From Bacteroidota bacterium (GTDB lineage: Bacteria; Bacteroidota; Bacteroidia; UKL13-3), in contig JANYDU010000001.1 in NCBI GenBank assembly GCA_025359805.1, forward strand, positions 15,421-79,420: a DNA stretch of 64,000 nucleotides, read 5' to 3'. Shown here piece after piece: positions 11,404 through 23,928 of this stretch. The notes beneath the pieces were generated by a model. That model saw nothing but the letters and a program-made list of their open reading frames with translations, was not told the origin of the DNA and did no database searches. Made by a program: the position numbers and the translations under genes. The first letter of the stretch is position 1, and each line of letters begins with the position of its first letter.

Positions 11404-11424
11404 TATTTTTAATTTATTTTGATG

Positions 11425-11453
11425 AAAGCCTGCTGCAATTTGTAGCAGGCTTT
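11425..11453. terminator. Intrinsic terminator after the T9SS pair, probably bidirectional
   Basis: aaagcctgctgca-att-tgtagcaggcttt followed by T tract. Confidence 0.85.
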
Positions 11454-11456
11454 TTT

Positions 11457-11663: not shown

Positions 11664-12446
11664 TTATTGCTCATACCTAAACATAGTGGAAACATTATTT
11701 GCAATAGTAGTTGCCAATGAAGGATTGATGGTGTAAGTATCTGTTGTATTTTGTGTTTTAAGATTGATACCATTTAACAATTTTCCATAATCACATGTGA
11801 TATGAACTTCTTGATTTTGGTTTGCCAAAACGGTAAAATTTTGTTGAGGCATGGTAATGTTTTTTAGTAAAGCATTGGAACCAATTTTAAAACTGAACGG
11901 AACATTTAAAGCACCAGCATGAGTTGCACTTGTATCTGCTATTCCCTGAAAATTCATAAAAATATATCCTTGTGATGTATTGCCAAACCACATTGGAGGA
12001 TTTTGTGAATATAACGGACTTAATGAATCAAACGAGGAAGGTTTTTTTACATTTGTTGTGGCATCAATTCCAACAGTAAATGAAACAGAAGTATAATTTC
12101 CGGCAGGTAAATTTCCAACCAAATACATTTCTGGGTCGTATTTTTTAAGTAGGTAAACACCACTCATTTCATAAAATGAACCATCTACTTTTTGAGCCTT
12201 TATTCCCGAAATATAAAACTGTGCAAGGCTCACAGAAATCCTGTGTCCATAGGCATCCATTAAAGTATCTCCGTAATTTGCTTCTATAGTATCAATATTG
12301 GTATGCAAATGAAAAGATAAAGTTCCTGTTGCAGTTGGTTGATTATTAACCGGACTTGTATTATCACTTTTTTTACAAGATGAAATAGCTATTACAATGA
12401 GTAAAAAAAGGAAGAAAATTATTGGTGTTAATTTTGAAGTTTTCAT
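11664..12446 (-). CDS. MbnP-like lipoprotein (putative copper binding)
   Basis: Lipobox ISSC after ATG 12446; motifs FYISGI, VSFTVGID, GYIFMNFQG, YHIG-equivalent FKIG, CDYGKLL, TIANN. Confidence 0.7.
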   Translation of the reverse strand: MKTSKLTPIIFFLFLLIVIAISSCKKSDNTSPVNNQPTATGTLSFHLHTNIDTIEANYGDTLMDAYGHRISVSLAQFYISGIKAQKVDGSFYEMSGVYLLKKYDPEMYLVGNLPAGNYTSVSFTVGIDATTNVKKPSSFDSLSPLYSQNPPMWFGNTSQGYIFMNFQGIADTSATHAGALNVPFSFKIGSNALLKNITMPQQNFTVLANQNQEVHITCDYGKLLNGINLKTQNTTDTYTINPSLATTIANNVSTMFRYEQ

Positions 12447-12465
12447 ATTATTTAGTTTAAGAATT

Positions 12466-13503
12466 TTAAAAAGTAATCTGCCAACCGGCATATAAAAATT
12501 GTTGTTGTTTCATTTGAATTCCATTTACATTTTGGTAAACCGGAATTCCATATTCAACAGAAAATTTATTTCTTGATTTCACATAAAAGTTTGCCCCTAT
12601 GTATGCACTTATTTTTTCGCCCCCACTATTATTTGCATTTGAAGAAGGCTCATTGATTGAGTACAATCTGTTATCAAAACCAGTTATTGCATTTGTAAAA
12701 TTATATTCGGCACGTACAGAATTACTAAACCATTTATGCCATTTATAAACACTCCATGAAGTAAAATTTAATTCATTTCCCAAACGATATTGTGCAGCAT
12801 TATCGTTTAATCTTACAATTGCTATTCCTTGAGCACCCCAATAAAAACTATTATACCGACCGATGTAAGTGATGCCTGGTAGTAATTCAAAGGAACCCGA
12901 ACCTAACTGCATAACATACGATGAAATCTTATTTTGGTTCATAGATGAGTTATCGGTAACATTAATATTTCCTGTTGGTAAACTTACACCAGCAGTTAAT
13001 GAAATGATATGTTGTTTTTTATTTATGAGTTTATAAATGGCGTATAATTTAGTATCGCTAATTCCAGATGTGGAGCCAATCATTTGCCCATTGTTTAATG
13101 TTGGCATTTCCATTCCTTTCATTTGTGGCGATGAAGATGGAAACATATTCATACTCATTGTTTGAGTATTATAATTAAACATTCCCATTAAAGTGAATTT
13201 ATTTGATATGCCATACATTGCCATCACCATGTGCATGTTCATCATCATTTTATCAGGGCTCATAATATATTGATTGAATACTTGATTATCGCTTACATTT
13301 TTTGTTCCAGAAATACTTCCATCCATCATCATATTCATATACCGATACGAAAACATCCACTCTCCTTTTTGATGATTGTTAAACAGCATTACACCTGCAG
13401 GAGCTTGTCCAGCTGGGCTTGTGGCACAACAACTTTCATCACATTGTGCAAATGATTTTAAACAAACACATAGCAACATCACAACAAATAAATTTGTCTT
13501 CAT
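12466..13503 (-). CDS. Met-rich outer-membrane beta-barrel transporter (putative Cu/metal uptake)
   Basis: Signal peptide; APAGVM..KGEWMFSYRYM; GISDTKL; GVSLPTG; MQLGSGS; terminal aromatic residue (WQITF). The ORF track starts at 13518; ATG 13503 is preferred. Confidence 0.65.
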   Translation of the reverse strand: MKTNLFVVMLLCVCLKSFAQCDESCCATSPAGQAPAGVMLFNNHQKGEWMFSYRYMNMMMDGSISGTKNVSDNQVFNQYIMSPDKMMMNMHMVMAMYGISNKFTLMGMFNYNTQTMSMNMFPSSSPQMKGMEMPTLNNGQMIGSTSGISDTKLYAIYKLINKKQHIISLTAGVSLPTGNINVTDNSSMNQNKISSYVMQLGSGSFELLPGITYIGRYNSFYWGAQGIAIVRLNDNAAQYRLGNELNFTSWSVYKWHKWFSNSVRAEYNFTNAITGFDNRLYSINEPSSNANNSGGEKISAYIGANFYVKSRNKFSVEYGIPVYQNVNGIQMKQQQFLYAGWQITF

Positions 13504-13602
13504 AAAAATTTTGTTCACGAATTTTTGTATCGATAAAAATAAATAGTCAGCACATTTTCGCTAAAGAAAATTGCAGAAATAATGGAGAGTAAAAATAAAT
13601 GC

Positions 13603-13974
13603 TTAACCTATTTGAGGAGGCTGAAAAATGCTAAACAGCGGGCAAGGATAAGTTGAAGTTTGTGAGCTTACAATAGGTTTGTTTGATGATGAAGAAAAAC
13701 AAATAAGTTGAAATTTTTCAGTTGAGCAAAAGAGTGTAAGCTCCTGAATTTCTTTTAAACTAAAGGGTATCTTTTTTGAATTTTCATCTTCAGATTTTAG
13801 TTGTTTATTCATGTAGCATTTTCCGTTACAATGCATTTGAGGCTTATTCTTATTTACACAAAAAGCCGATGTGATATAGGCTTTATTGAGCTGATAATAG
13901 AGGTACATCTCCACTTTACTAAAAAACTGGAGCATCAATACAAACAATAAAAATATAGAAATTATTTTTTTCAA
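13603..13974 (-). CDS. Small membrane-targeted Cys-motif protein (C-x9-C-x3-C) with C-terminal FQPP; DUF2946/CruR-like uORF candidate
   Basis: Hydrophobic N-terminus; CVNKNKPQMHCNGKCYM; ends SIFQPPQIG. First gene of the Met-rich barrel/MbnP unit. Confidence 0.65.
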   Translation of the reverse strand: MKKIISIFLLFVLMLQFFSKVEMYLYYQLNKAYITSAFCVNKNKPQMHCNGKCYMNKQLKSEDENSKKIPFSLKEIQELTLFCSTEKFQLICFSSSSNKPIVSSQTSTYPCPLFSIFQPPQIG

Positions 13975-13981
13975 TGCGCCC

Positions 13982-13989
13982 CAAATGTA
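13982..13989 (-). promoter_or_regulatory. -7 promoter box TACATTTG 7 nt upstream of the uORF TTG
   Basis: Exact TAnnTTTG match, implying a near-leaderless transcript. Confidence 0.55.
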
Positions 13990-19314: not shown

Positions 19315-22300
19315 TTATTTTACCTCACGGTTTCCAATAATTAATTCGATAGTTCCATGTCTATGAATATGTAATCCTGAGCGTTTTTTTATATCAACCA
19401 AATAAACATAAACACCCTCACTTGCTTCTACACCTTTTTCGTTTTTTCCATTCCAATTAAATTTTGGATCAGTTGATTCAAAGAATAAATTTTCCCAACG
19501 GTTATAAATCCAAATATGAAATACATCGCACTTTTGTGATACTCCTCTTATCTCAAAAAAGTCATTCACTCCATCTCCATTTGGAGTGAACACATTTGGA
19601 ATAATTACTTCTTCAATAGTATCTCCGTCTATATAAAATGTTTTTGTAACAGAATCTGCACATGGGCTTCCGGGATTACTGATGAGGGTAATATTAAAAT
19701 AATCGGTTCGTGGATATTGATGAATTGGATTTATTTCTGTTGACGAATCGCCATCACCAAAATACCATTTATATGGAACGTTTGAAGTGAGCGAAGTGAA
19801 ATTATTAAAAGTAACTTTTAAAGAGCAACTGTCTCTTCCAATTCCAAAATCAGCTCCCGATTTGGAGTTCACATTAAAAGTTTTGGTAATACTATCTAAT
19901 ACGTTACAAGTTGCCGAATCAACTACAACTAATTTTATTTTTATAGTGCCACTATTTAAAATGGTATCGGTTAAATTTCTTGACGTGTCTTTAAAAATAT
20001 CATTCACAAACCAATAAAAATGTTTGCCCACTTTAGTTTCATTTTTTGTATGTAAAATGAATGGAGCACATAATGTAGAATCAGTTAAACTAAAATTGGC
20101 TTTCGCAATATTTGAAGTGCTATCATAAGTAAAAGTTATACTGCTTGTATCGGCACAAGGAGTATTATCTCCACTAATTAAAATGATGGTATAAGTTCCA
20201 TTTTTGTAAGCGCGAGGTGGAGGGTCTTTTTCATAAGTTGACGAGGTTCCATCACCAAAATACCACGTGTAATTATCTATAGGAATATTTTGATAGGTTG
20301 TACTTTTATTAATGAAATGAATTAATGGTCCGCAGGTATCTCTGTAAATTTCAAAAATGCTTTTTCCTGAAACATTTACAAAAATATTTTTTTGAATGGA
20401 GTCGGATTTATTGCAAGTATTACTATCCGTAATCACCAATTTTATTTTGTATAAATTAGGATTGACAAGTGTATCAAAATAATTAAAATTTGTTGATTGA
20501 AGTAGCCCATTTTTATACCAATAAAAATGTTGCCCCAAATTGTTTACTGTGTTTTCACAAAATAAAAATTGCGGAGCACAACCTACTAGAGGATGTAAAA
20601 TAAAGTTTGAAACAATGTAATATCGATTGCTGTCATAGTCAATAACGCTAAATGCTGTATCTGAACAAAAGCTTCCAGGGTTGGTAACCAGCTTAACCAA
20701 AAATAGATTATTTGATAGGTATTTATGAGTAGGATTTTGTTGTGTAGATGTGTTGCCATCACCAAAATGCCAAACAAATTGATAAGGCGTATTATTATAT
20801 GAAGTAGAATGATTGAAGAATTGAAATGTCCGTCCGCAGGTATCCATAACATAAGAGAATGCTGCATGTGTAGTTGATTTAGTTTGAAGGGTTTGTTGAA
20901 CGGAATCTATTTTTTTGCAACTCACAGAATCCTTTACTATTAATTTTACCACAATTGTTTTTTCGGTTGTAAACGAATCCATAAATTGAAGTGATGAGTC
21001 TTTTAAAACATTATCATAATACCATAAAAATTTCTTTCCATTTATTGATGAATTGGTGAAGGTAACCGTGGAAGGTAAACAGGATTGAAGTGGATTAATA
21101 CTCATTCTTGCATACAGCATTTGAGGAGTTATTTTTACATTAATTGTGTCATAAAGTGTGTCTGTACAAAGTCCTCCAGGTTTGCTAATTAATTTAACAA
21201 TATAGTTTCCTGAATCTTTATAAATATGTATTGGATTTTTTTGTGATGAAGTATCTCCATCGCCAAAATACCAAAAATAATTTTCTGTGTCTCCAGGGTA
21301 AATTATAGATTGATTGACAAAAGAAGTTTTAAAAGAACATGTATCAAATTGAACTGCAAATTTACTCTGAACCGAGCCTTCAATAGTTAGCGTTTTAGTA
21401 ATGCTATCAATAATGATACATCTTGATGAATCAATAGCGATCAGTTTAATACTATGAGTTCCTTTTGTTGGAAATAAAAATTGATAATTCATTGTGGTGT
21501 CTTTAAATATTCCATCCACATACCAGTAATAATTTTTTCCATTATAGCTGTTATTGGTAAAGGAAACGTTTCTGTTTGAACAACCTGTGCGGGGAGCAAT
21601 AATAAAATCGGCAATCACGGCATCATTAATTCTAAAATCTAATTTAACACACACTTCACTGCATCTTGGACTTTTATTTTTAGGGGAATAAGAGCCTGAT
21701 GTGGTAGGAAAATTTCCATTCTTACCTTTATCACAACTTGCACAAATAGCCTGATAAATTACGCCACGTTTATCAAATCTACTTGTTCCGCCATCCACAT
21801 GATCGGGGTTTCCGTTTTCGCCTAAAAAACTCGAATAAAATAAACTCTTGGCATCTTTTTTTAAAACGAATAAAAAGAAATCGCTACCATCAGTTGTCTT
21901 TTGTAAAGCATCAGCAGTGCATGTTAAATTTGTTGTGTTGCTATAAAAATTTGTTTTATAAAGAGCTTTCCCATTTCCATAATCATTTACTTCTCCACCC
22001 CAACATGATGCATAAATATTTCCGCATGCATCTACAATAAATGCGGTAGGAGAAATGGTATTATTTTGTATTCCATTTCCAATAACAGTTGAGAGTTCAA
22101 GTGTGTCTAATTCTTTACTAAACCTCGATACATATAAACTTCCTTTTGCATTACTATACACATTATTTGTTACCGGCATCGAATCAAAATTTTGCCCAAG
22201 CACATTTACCTTTCCTTTTGTATCTAATTTTACAAAATACGTTTGATCATATTTTGCACTTCCCCAAAACATAGAACGCATTAACGTACTTCCATTGGCA

Positions 22301-23928
22301 CTAATTTTTGCGATAAATCCATCAACTGGTCCACCAGAAAATGTATTTTTATAAACACCAGTTGTTATCGGAAAATTTCTACTTTGAGTACCGCCTGCTA
22401 CATAAATATTTCCTTGCACATCAATATCTAAAGAATAGGCAGCATCATGATTGGATTCGCCTAAATAGGACGACCAAATTAATTTTTTTAGTGAACTGTC
22501 TAACTTAAAAACGCAAGCTTCTTGCCCGCCCTTATTTGTAGTTTGAAATGCTCCTGTAGTAGTTGGAAAATTGCTAGAAGAAGTTGTTGATGCAATAATA
22601 ATTTCATTGGCATCATTCACTTGCACTTCGCCTCTAAATTCATCGGCATAATTCATGCGTAAACTGTCGGCCAGCATAATCCCATCCCATCCAGAACCTC
22701 CAATATAGGTAGAGCCAACTAAAGCTGTTCCATCACTATTAAATTTTGTAACAATAATATCTGATTCAGTTGTTGTACTATTAAATGTTGTATCAAAAGC
22801 AAAATGTGTTATAGGAAAATTAACAGAATGTGTACTTCCAAAAACAATCAATCGGTTTTGTTTATCAACAATTAAACTATGCGGATATTCATCTCGATTT
22901 CCGCCTAAATAAGTTGCATAAATGAGTGCCGAGCCATCATTATTATATTTACTAACTGAAATGTCGCAGGGGAAACCATTTTGTGGCCATTGCCCAACAC
23001 CGCCATTATAATTTTGTTGAAACGCCCCCGCTGTTGCAGGATATTTTAAACTATTTCCATAATCAGTTACAATTCCGGCAATGTAAGCGTTACCATCATT
23101 ATCATAGGTTGCCGTGTATCCAAAATTATCAACTTGTGAACCGGAGTATGTTGAGAAAACCACAACAGGGTCGATAATTATTGGAAGAGTTGTGTTATAG
23201 TTTCCCATTTTAAAACTCAATACATTTTCTTCCAAAACAAACTCGCACAATACTTCTTTTTGCATGCCTTCAATTATTTGATAGGCGTATGGTTTCATTT
23301 CTATATAATCAAATACACTGGTTTTAACGTATAGTGCTCCAGCTTTTAAACTCATATTATCGGCTCCATCATATTTCATTTTTATAGATGAAGTGTTGAT
23401 ACCGGGCTCAATAATAAAATCATATTTTAATGAACCGGTTTCTTCTTGCGTATAAAATTTAAGATCTACTCCTTGATAAATATTTTTAATAGAAACTTCT
23501 GAATAAGGTTTCACACCTGATTTCCATCGTTTGTTATCATTGCCTAAAAAATAATTGTAATACTGCGTAAAGGGCTTTTCTGAAAGAGGTTTGGCATTTA
23601 TGTTACTGTTTAAAAAACTAATTCGTAGCGCATGCCCTTTTACGGTAAAAGGTTTGTGATAATTTTCAATAGGGCGAGGATGCTTTACCAAATTTGCTAC
23701 ATCATCTTTATCATAAAAAAAATATTGTAACGCATTTTTTTCGATATATAAATGAGCATTAAATAAATTCACTGAATACAAAGAAGGATTATCCCACTGC
23801 CCTTTGTTTTCAATAAATTCAAATTTTTTGGTTGAAGTGTTTTGAGGATTATGCGCAGTTATTACACCAATGCAAACAAGCATCAACAACAAAGAAAAAA
23901 ACAAATATGGTAAATGGTTTTTTTTCAA
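19315..23928 (-). CDS. 1537-aa T9SS type-B cargo: N-terminal FIENKGQ domain, SBBP beta-propeller repeats, tandem PKD repeats, gliding-motility (CHU_C) tail
   Basis: FIENKGQW; repeated YSTY.GG..D..Y...VD; repeated W.FGDG.TS...NP.H.Y; C-terminus IPNVFTPNGDGVNDFF..IYNRW..WNG..GVYVY. Confidence 0.9.
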   Translation of the reverse strand: MKKNHLPYLFFSLLLMLVCIGVITAHNPQNTSTKKFEFIENKGQWDNPSLYSVNLFNAHLYIEKNALQYFFYDKDDVANLVKHPRPIENYHKPFTVKGHALRISFLNSNINAKPLSEKPFTQYYNYFLGNDNKRWKSGVKPYSEVSIKNIYQGVDLKFYTQEETGSLKYDFIIEPGINTSSIKMKYDGADNMSLKAGALYVKTSVFDYIEMKPYAYQIIEGMQKEVLCEFVLEENVLSFKMGNYNTTLPIIIDPVVVFSTYSGSQVDNFGYTATYDNDGNAYIAGIVTDYGNSLKYPATAGAFQQNYNGGVGQWPQNGFPCDISVSKYNNDGSALIYATYLGGNRDEYPHSLIVDKQNRLIVFGSTHSVNFPITHFAFDTTFNSTTTESDIIVTKFNSDGTALVGSTYIGGSGWDGIMLADSLRMNYADEFRGEVQVNDANEIIIASTTSSSNFPTTTGAFQTTNKGGQEACVFKLDSSLKKLIWSSYLGESNHDAAYSLDIDVQGNIYVAGGTQSRNFPITTGVYKNTFSGGPVDGFIAKISANGSTLMRSMFWGSAKYDQTYFVKLDTKGKVNVLGQNFDSMPVTNNVYSNAKGSLYVSRFSKELDTLELSTVIGNGIQNNTISPTAFIVDACGNIYASCWGGEVNDYGNGKALYKTNFYSNTTNLTCTADALQKTTDGSDFFLFVLKKDAKSLFYSSFLGENGNPDHVDGGTSRFDKRGVIYQAICASCDKGKNGNFPTTSGSYSPKNKSPRCSEVCVKLDFRINDAVIADFIIAPRTGCSNRNVSFTNNSYNGKNYYWYVDGIFKDTTMNYQFLFPTKGTHSIKLIAIDSSRCIIIDSITKTLTIEGSVQSKFAVQFDTCSFKTSFVNQSIIYPGDTENYFWYFGDGDTSSQKNPIHIYKDSGNYIVKLISKPGGLCTDTLYDTINVKITPQMLYARMSINPLQSCLPSTVTFTNSSINGKKFLWYYDNVLKDSSLQFMDSFTTEKTIVVKLIVKDSVSCKKIDSVQQTLQTKSTTHAAFSYVMDTCGRTFQFFNHSTSYNNTPYQFVWHFGDGNTSTQQNPTHKYLSNNLFLVKLVTNPGSFCSDTAFSVIDYDSNRYYIVSNFILHPLVGCAPQFLFCENTVNNLGQHFYWYKNGLLQSTNFNYFDTLVNPNLYKIKLVITDSNTCNKSDSIQKNIFVNVSGKSIFEIYRDTCGPLIHFINKSTTYQNIPIDNYTWYFGDGTSSTYEKDPPPRAYKNGTYTIILISGDNTPCADTSSITFTYDSTSNIAKANFSLTDSTLCAPFILHTKNETKVGKHFYWFVNDIFKDTSRNLTDTILNSGTIKIKLVVVDSATCNVLDSITKTFNVNSKSGADFGIGRDSCSLKVTFNNFTSLTSNVPYKWYFGDGDSSTEINPIHQYPRTDYFNITLISNPGSPCADSVTKTFYIDGDTIEEVIIPNVFTPNGDGVNDFFEIRGVSQKCDVFHIWIYNRWENLFFESTDPKFNWNGKNEKGVEASEGVYVYLVDIKKRSGLHIHRHGTIELIIGNREVK

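Follow-up and report, generated by a model that had tools for sequence, protein, structure and literature searches.

A cysteine-motif leader gene heads a probable copper-transport operon in a Bacteroidota bacterium and is a candidate co-translational metal sensor of the CruR/CutF kind

We examined a 64,000-nucleotide stretch of DNA from a Bacteroidota bacterium (GTDB lineage UKL13-3; assembly GCA_025359805.1, contig JANYDU010000001.1, positions 15,421 to 79,420 of the forward strand), referred to here as the window, in which a small gene of 123 codons lies on the minus strand at 13603..13974. An original prediction, made from the sequence alone, had read this open reading frame (ORF) as a metal-sensing, ribosome-arresting leader of a copper-uptake operon, equivalent to the proteobacterial regulators CruR and CutF. 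The ORF itself is borne out, running from a TTG start at 13974 to a TAA stop at 13605-13603, and it belongs to a large, unnamed family of Bacteroidota proteins. It is a real, translated gene, with motifs far above what chance would give, and the first of a three-gene operon, in which it is followed by a methionine-rich, Cys-motif outer-membrane channel, probably of the COG4313 type, and by MbnP. That the operon serves uptake, and that its metal is copper, we infer from MbnP, the Met-rich Cys-motif barrel and synteny. No second member of the leader family occurs in the genome to which the window belongs (assembly of 2.47 Mb, 84.5% complete).

The N-terminus of the leader protein is hydrophobic, as had been proposed, with residues 4-19 (13918..13965, minus strand), preceded by K2 and K3, forming a predicted export signal or signal-anchor. 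Further along lies a Cys cluster, C39-x9-C49-x3-C53 (13816..13860, minus strand; codons at 13860-13858, 13830-13828 and 13818-13816), in which N41, P45 and G51 are also invariant alignment columns and which, from its sequence, is presumably a metal-binding or redox site. The protein ends in I-F-Q-P-P-Q-I-G, with F117, P119 and P120; both the C-x9-C-x3-C pattern and this terminal FQPP-QIG had been predicted, and both are confirmed in place. Between the cluster and the C-terminal motif, the spacer (residues 54-118; 13621..13815, minus strand) shows near-zero sequence conservation across the family and a constrained length. The codons of the invariant Pro119-Pro120, CCT CCT (13615..13620, minus strand), are preceded by I-F-Q and stand three codons before the stop; they are a candidate site of ribosome pausing or arrest.

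Relatives of the leader are numerous. The first 10 came from a word-indexed search, and C39, C49, C53, F117, P119 and P120 were already invariant among them. When 1.84 billion cluster representatives were searched with a profile, 7,685 proteins, counted as clusters at 50% identity, were recovered at E <= 1e-3 and 4,738 at E <= 1e-10. Among GTDB species genomes, a scan found 254 relatives, of which all titled ones are from Bacteroidota. In an even sample of this phylum, the family is carried by 145 of 401 genomes and 70 of 179 genera, with one to three copies each. Pfam and NCBIfam scans of the window protein and 114 aligned relatives returned zero matches.

Conservation within the family follows the architecture of the protein. 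C39, N41, P45, C49, G51, C53, P119 and P120 are invariant in 114 aligned members, and the conservation profile is highest over residues 27-60, runs at about 0.5-1 bit per column over residues 61-115, has a second peak at I-F-x-P-P and is low in the tail. All 114 members have one N-terminal 15-residue window with a Kyte-Doolittle value above 1.6, with K or R ahead of the core; a second hydrophobic segment is found in just 7%. Loss of the terminal PP among relatives had been named beforehand as grounds for rejecting the prediction, and the PP is invariant, so the prediction survives on this point. It lies no more than 12 residues from the C-terminus in 155 of 159 representatives (FHPP in 92, FQPP in 21 and FRPP in 19), with H, Q or R as the preceding residue in 132 of the 155, and the tail beyond it is mostly two to four residues long. 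From the third Cys (C53) to the PP, the distance ranges over 63-72 residues among 157 representatives, and 79 of 81 genome loci stay within 60-70. Such a length, held without sequence conservation, is what a nascent-chain ruler predicts: a fixed distance without a fixed sequence.

The promoter of the leader gene is also distinctive. A -7 box had been claimed 7 nt ahead of the TTG, and it is indeed there: TACATTTG (13982..13989, minus strand) fits TAnnTTTG, the Bacteroidota sigma-A pattern. Of 80 family loci, 63 have a TAnnTTTG box no more than 200 nt upstream, where the background is 0.11 per 200 nt, and in 38 the box ends 4-10 nt ahead of the start codon. Among long ORFs of the genome to which the window belongs, just 6% have a box so placed. 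The -7 box is known to occupy positions -12..-5, with transcription starting 4-5 nt further on (PMC6847099, PMC9723704); the box position and start spacing together imply leaders of 0-6 nt in the family and 2-3 nt in the window. The family's mRNAs, including that of the window, are thus predicted to be near-leaderless. Leaderless mRNAs account for about 5.5% in F. psychrophilum (PMC9723704). The predicted starts, which were assigned heuristically, are ATG in 31 cases, TTG in 30 and GTG in 19, or about 61% non-AUG, and the TTG of the window aligns with the ATG of its closest relatives. Members of the family are often mis-started or missed because of these non-AUG starts.

Gene order ties the leader to copper-linked functions across the family. 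A same-strand gene follows 0-382 nt downstream in 65 of 66 loci, the exception (L054) being a contig that ends after the small ORF. As the first downstream gene, 28 loci have one for a barrel of about 308 residues like that of the window, 15 one for a TonB-dependent receptor, nine one for MbnP and six one for a YtkA-like protein, and MbnH-like di-haem peroxidases and YHS-domain proteins are encoded further downstream. A survey for metal transporters behind the leader had been put forward as a check on the prediction, and its outcome is favourable: the leader gene always comes first, before copper-linked genes. In nine genomes, two leader copies occur in one same-strand cluster, each ahead of its own sub-operon, as in the order small ORF, MbnP, MbnH, barrel, small ORF, TonB-dependent receptor; one copy for each sub-operon fits action in cis. 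Some internal copies (L088-L096) start 4 nt past the preceding gene and carry the variant IFxPPP. A search for a conserved upstream regulator found none, the largest cluster of upstream genes covering four of 73 loci and half of the upstream genes being divergent. In one close relative only (L099:1-1437), a histidine kinase and a response regulator lie upstream on the same strand, with an opposite-strand gene intervening.

In the window, the gene after the leader encodes the outer-membrane beta-barrel (12466..13518 or 13503, minus strand), of 345-350 residues. The Met-richness stated in the original prediction is confirmed, at 8.3% Met, and an AlphaFold2 fold match points to a barrel of the COG4313 / Phenol_MetA_deg type (pLDDT 72; best Protein Data Bank (PDB) match 4RL8, E = 1.8e-12, TM 0.55-0.72). 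The PF13557 model gives no match to the window barrel and matches three of 28 relatives. The mature N-terminus carries the Cys motif QCDESCC, which reads ACDICGCGG in most members; Met-richness is shared by the window copy and just one other. Where the barrel gene starts is ambiguous: a GTG at 13518 gives MNKIFMKTN, which aligns with the MSIFKTT of the closest relatives, and the signal peptide is shorter if translation begins with the ATG at 13503.

The operon closes with a gene (11664..12491, minus strand) for a copper-binding lipoprotein of the MbnP family (PF20243, E = 3e-27, 96.2 bits with a gathering cut-off of 27); TIGR04052, the NCBIfam equivalog, falls far short of its own threshold. 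Its annotated start is probably 15 codons too far upstream, because the lipoprotein-like signal begins at M16. The next ORF beyond MbnP is on the opposite strand, and an adjacent gene for MbnH, the di-haem peroxidase with which MbnP is paired in most related loci, is absent in the window. A terminator scan identified a G+C-rich 14-bp hairpin with flanking T and A runs between the convergent genes (11424..11454), which is likely a bidirectional terminator ending the operon. Upstream of the leader gene lies a divergent YihY/BrkB gene.

We also found a relationship between the end of the leader gene and the beginning of the next one. In the closest relatives of the window locus, the last codons and the stop form a helix with the region just upstream of the next AUG, and the stretch after the first Pro codon was therefore tested for pairing, by comparing the 18-24 nt after this codon with the start region of the next gene against within-locus controls. 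The mean duplex energy with the next start is -5.7 kcal/mol, against -4.3 kcal/mol elsewhere in the locus (Wilcoxon p = 0.004), and 13 of 57 loci rank within the bottom 5% of their controls (binomial p = 3.7e-6). The energy dip is limited to offsets of 0..+9 from the Pro codon, and with tails permuted between loci the effect is of the same size. At least eight contiguous Watson-Crick pairs occur in 26 of 96 instances, with helix sequences that vary by lineage. The signal persists after dereplication, with 22 of 83 clusters below 0.05 at 70% identity (p = 8e-11) and 13 of 62 at 50% identity (p = 1e-5). A ribosome parked on the PP would cover exactly the pairing stretch. For a covariation search, a scan of metagenomes gave two distant loci; the nearest proteins are about 50% identical.

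On the combined analysis, we consider it slightly more likely than not that the leader ORF acts in cis and senses a metal, probably copper, during its own translation in the manner of CruR and CutF. Its family most likely arose independently of DUF2946, the family of CruR and CutF, or diverged from it beyond recognition. The near-leaderless mRNA would be translated from its 5' end, and the N-terminal hydrophobic segment would bring the nascent chain to the Sec translocon. When the ribosome reaches Pro-Pro, the Cys cluster would lie about 66 residues behind, which is roughly the span of the exit tunnel plus the translocon, so that the cluster would just have arrived in the periplasm. Metal binding or disulfide formation at the cluster may then alter how long the ribosome dwells on Pro-Pro. 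Parked two to four codons before the stop, the ribosome would cover the tail and the stop codon and could thereby control the next gene, in many family members by holding open the RNA helix between the tail and the next start region. Export of the chain, the identity of the metal, arrest at PP and the direction of regulation are parts of this model that we infer.

In the window itself, the start-masking helix is weak or absent, and the pairing holds at the level of the family only. Control would here run instead through plain translational coupling or through a CruR-like termination effect in the intergenic region (13504..13602, minus strand), which spans 84-99 nt depending on the choice of next start, is A/U-rich and has 14 C against 8 G. 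If the leader regulates in the window, these routes are as likely as a CutF-like switch. A local 8-bp hairpin with two G-U pairs (13499..13521, minus strand) spans both the ATG at 13503-13501 and the GTG at 13518-13516, and the unpaired value of the start region is 0.29, where shuffles give 0.44; this lies at the 13th percentile and is not significant.

Several observations weigh against a metal-sensing arrest leader, and the first of them concern RNA. The intergenic fold in the window is no better than that of dinucleotide shuffles (z = +0.52, 140 of 200 as good), and its tail-to-start complementarity ranks at the 36th-41st percentile of controls, with a longest run of 6 nt. Across the family, masking of the next start by the intergenic region alone, without the ORF tail, was likewise negative (mean percentile 0.57). 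A ribosome that merely terminates would also open the tail helix, so the helix shows coupling and not arrest, and two prolines alone are a modest pause site. The profile of the family does not resemble that of the known sensors: an hhalign comparison of 114 leader-family sequences with 30 DUF2946 sequences, the latter mostly from Burkholderiales and of limited diversity, gave a probability of 0.1% (E = 0.47), and remote homology to DUF2946 was rejected. At the protein level, the Cys block of about 35 residues is conserved beyond what simple metal ligation needs. The AlphaFold2 model of the leader protein (mean pLDDT 79.6) has helices at residues 2-29, 31-38, 52-68 and 71-82 and no predicted secondary structure from residue 83 to the end (residue 123), where the pLDDT of 75-79 in the tail is compatible with a folded mature protein.

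The stem-loop to which the original prediction had assigned a role (13550..13574, minus strand) fares differently in its two aspects. It exists in the minimum-free-energy fold as a weak, A/U-rich hairpin of six to nine pairs with a bulge, followed by a U-rich stretch. Its significance does not hold up, as the fold equals shuffles and the terminator scan did not call it. It begins 29 nt past the stop and is therefore beyond the reach of a ribosome on the PP codons. It carries no weight in our reading.

The protein-level observations would suit an alternative in which the leader product is an ordinary inner-membrane-anchored periplasmic Cys-rich metallochaperone, thiol-redox or assembly factor that serves the neighbouring copper proteins, with F-x-P-P as a structural or binding motif rather than a translational one. 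We regard this as unlikely, though it is the alternative that survives best. In its favour are the strong conservation of the 35-residue Cys block, in which N41, P45 and G51 do not vary, a model with a mean pLDDT of 79.6 and 75-79 in the tail, and a consistent co-occurrence with periplasmic copper proteins. Its partners vary widely, however, from the barrel to the TonB-dependent receptor, MbnP, YHS and YtkA-like proteins, and a dedicated factor does not readily explain two leader copies inside one cluster. The spacer lacks conserved sequence or predicted secondary structure yet keeps a fixed length, the position of the PP is fixed relative to the stop codon, and a fold search of the PDB with the leader model gave no structural match. 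A purely protein-level role also does not predict that the nucleotides after the PP pair with the next start region.

This last feature could be accommodated by a plain translational-coupling leader, which would open the structure at the next start and set a fixed expression ratio without metal sensing or programmed arrest, the Cys residues and PP serving the mature peptide in some other way. Any ribosome that reaches the stop would open the tail-to-start helices, as this explanation needs. It leaves unexplained why the PP is invariant at two to four codons from the stop, why the Cys cluster does not vary, why the spacing is constrained to 60-70 residues and why the association is exclusively with copper-linked genes, and we think it quite improbable as a full account. 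That the ORF is a chance open frame in what is merely a 5' untranslated leader, as its TTG start and the lack of database family matches might suggest, is already refuted by 7,685 related clusters with amino-acid-level conservation along the whole length, by the ATG of relatives at the aligned start position and by the promoter box directly ahead of the start.

Among known systems, CruR (Bp2923) of Bordetella pertussis (PMC9426467) is one of the closest to the leader. Both are small exported proteins of about 120-145 residues encoded by the first gene of an operon, with a conserved Cys motif, a C-terminal x-x-P-P three residues before the stop, a Cys-to-PP spacing kept across a variable spacer, and a long intergenic region; TonB-dependent receptors, MbnPH and other copper proteins are encoded downstream of both. 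Proteins of the DUF2946 family have an export signal and a 45-residue spacing conserved within one or two residues, and their genes come first in operons with TonB-dependent receptors, PepSY, MbnPH, YcnI and CopC (PMC9426467). The two families nevertheless differ in several respects, beginning with the lack of similarity in profile-profile or hidden Markov model (HMM) comparison: the DUF2946 HMM (PF11162) gave no match over its gathering score in the window protein, the 114 relatives or the window's own genome. The leader family has C-x9-C-x3-C where CruR has CXXC, F-[HQR]-P-P without R-A where CruR has R-A-P-P, and a spacer of about 66 residues where CruR has 45. It is confined to Bacteroidota, with near-leaderless promoters and many non-AUG starts, and CruR works via Rho-dependent termination.

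CutF, from the cutFOG operon of Rhodobacter capsulatus (PMC8456105, PMC9973294), shares with the leader a signal sequence, a C-x3-C motif with an extra Cys upstream and a C-terminal proline motif. CutF has CXXXC and PPP, and its stalled ribosome melts a stem-loop over the ribosome-binding site of cutO (bioRxiv 10.1101/2025.02.05.636593). The Cys motif of the leader differs less than had been claimed, since C-x3-C is found in CutF too. The helix melted by the stalled ribosome of CutF conceals the next initiation site; in the leader family, about a quarter of members or more have tail-to-start helices. CutF differs from the leader in its PPP and in being a DUF2946 protein. What its helix conceals is a Shine-Dalgarno sequence, an element not used in Bacteroidota, and the gene under its control is that of a detoxifying multicopper oxidase, whereas the leader family precedes channels, receptors or MbnP. 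The window locus has no evident helix. The proposed analogy to CruR and CutF thus finds good support in the architecture, of which all features are shared, in the ruler, in the synteny and, at the family level, in the RNA pairing; the sequence is not shared, and the leader does not belong to DUF2946.

Similar designs are known among RAPP-like (RQH) arrest peptides such as ApdA, ApdP and SecM-type monitoring substrates. In these, an export signal at the N-terminus and a variable linker lead up to a proline-containing arrest motif near the stop, a layout that the leader resembles. Their motifs follow the pattern (R/Q/H)-(A/G/D)-(P/G/S)-(P/G), with stalling on the third residue, and arose repeatedly in unrelated peptides (bioRxiv 10.1101/2023.09.02.556018). 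The H, Q or R before the PP in the leader family are the same three residues that head these motifs. The RAPP-like pattern itself is absent, as the window has F-Q-P-P and the family F-[HQR]-P-P, in which the A/G/D position is missing, the R/Q/H stands directly before the PP and a conserved I-F precedes it. RAPP-like peptides also differ in lying upstream of secA, secDF or yidC and in having no Cys cluster.

DUF2946 itself is scarce in the phylum. The homologue table of PMC9426467 contains no Bacteroidota, and only two of 201 Bacteroidota genomes have a match over the cut-off. Weak DUF2946-like matches of 21.7-25.2 bits were seen in five of the 201 genomes (G013, G040, G049, G138 and G165), in three of which (G013, G040 and G138) they lie on contigs other than those with the leader-family copies. 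Either genuine DUF2946 genes of non-Bacteroidia classes or a bridging family could account for them.

A DUF2946 locus on the Ralstonia megaplasmid pGMI1000MP (L085:361-1884, minus strand) provides a parallel on the side of the regulated genes. Its DUF2946 gene, one of the Ralstonia loci from which, with database relatives, the DUF2946 alignment was built, is followed by a PF13557 barrel starting ACATCGCS. This barrel resembles that of the window (BLASTP E = 1e-6) and has the CxxCGC N-terminus common to the barrels of the leader family. With barrels behind both leaders, the same kind of cargo stands behind two unrelated leader families. Going by their sequences, COG4313 / PF13557 barrels with an N-terminal CxxCGC are candidate channels for thiophilic metals shared by Proteobacteria and Bacteroidota.

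Another family, HYC_CC_PP (NCBIfam NF047658), was considered as a possible identity for the leader and rejected, as its model matches two other genes of the same genome and none of the 114 leader-family members. It too comprises small Bacteroidota proteins that begin with a hydrophobic segment, contain Cys motifs and have a PP close to the C-terminal end. It is a separate family in which the PP is followed by about 10 conserved residues, IYLLxxxxLI, and in which one copy comes after, not before, a TonB-dependent receptor gene. The two genes lie at C55:1456-1842 (minus strand; L086) and C21:1498-1887 (minus strand; L087), one of them between the TonB-dependent receptor and an HMA-like protein with a 292-residue barrel. 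HYC_CC_PP may be a further metal-linked small-protein family. Elsewhere in the window, and unrelated to the leader gene, positions 19315-23928 (minus strand) encode a secreted protein of 1,537 residues with repeated modules of about 90 residues, FxNxS...YxWxFGDG, that are PKD-like, and a C-terminal domain of the gliding/T9SS type.

In its broadest form, the sensor reading extends to the whole phylum. We hold more tentatively, as a proposal with slightly less than an even prospect of being right, that Bacteroidota evolved, independently of DUF2946, phylum-wide Sec-coupled nascent-peptide metal sensors with a fixed 66-residue ruler and an F-[HQR]-P-P arrest motif. Their near-leaderless mRNAs would frequently have GUG or UUG as the start codon, and their tail would pair with the start of the next gene. 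Such a device would amount to a Shine-Dalgarno-independent CutF switch, a portable module carried once for each copper-transport sub-operon. If this is true, post-transcriptional copper sensing by a nascent exported peptide was reached at least twice and is not a proteobacterial peculiarity. Bacteroidota, which lack Shine-Dalgarno-based initiation and almost lack DUF2946, would, in roughly one species out of three, place outer-membrane copper channels, TonB-dependent receptors and MbnP/MbnH systems under the control of such a leader. It would also make the family a natural collection of sequences that arrest Bacteroidota ribosomes, with a ruler of 66 residues against 45 in CruR, and the leader would be a compact regulatory part for Bacteroidota genetic tools.

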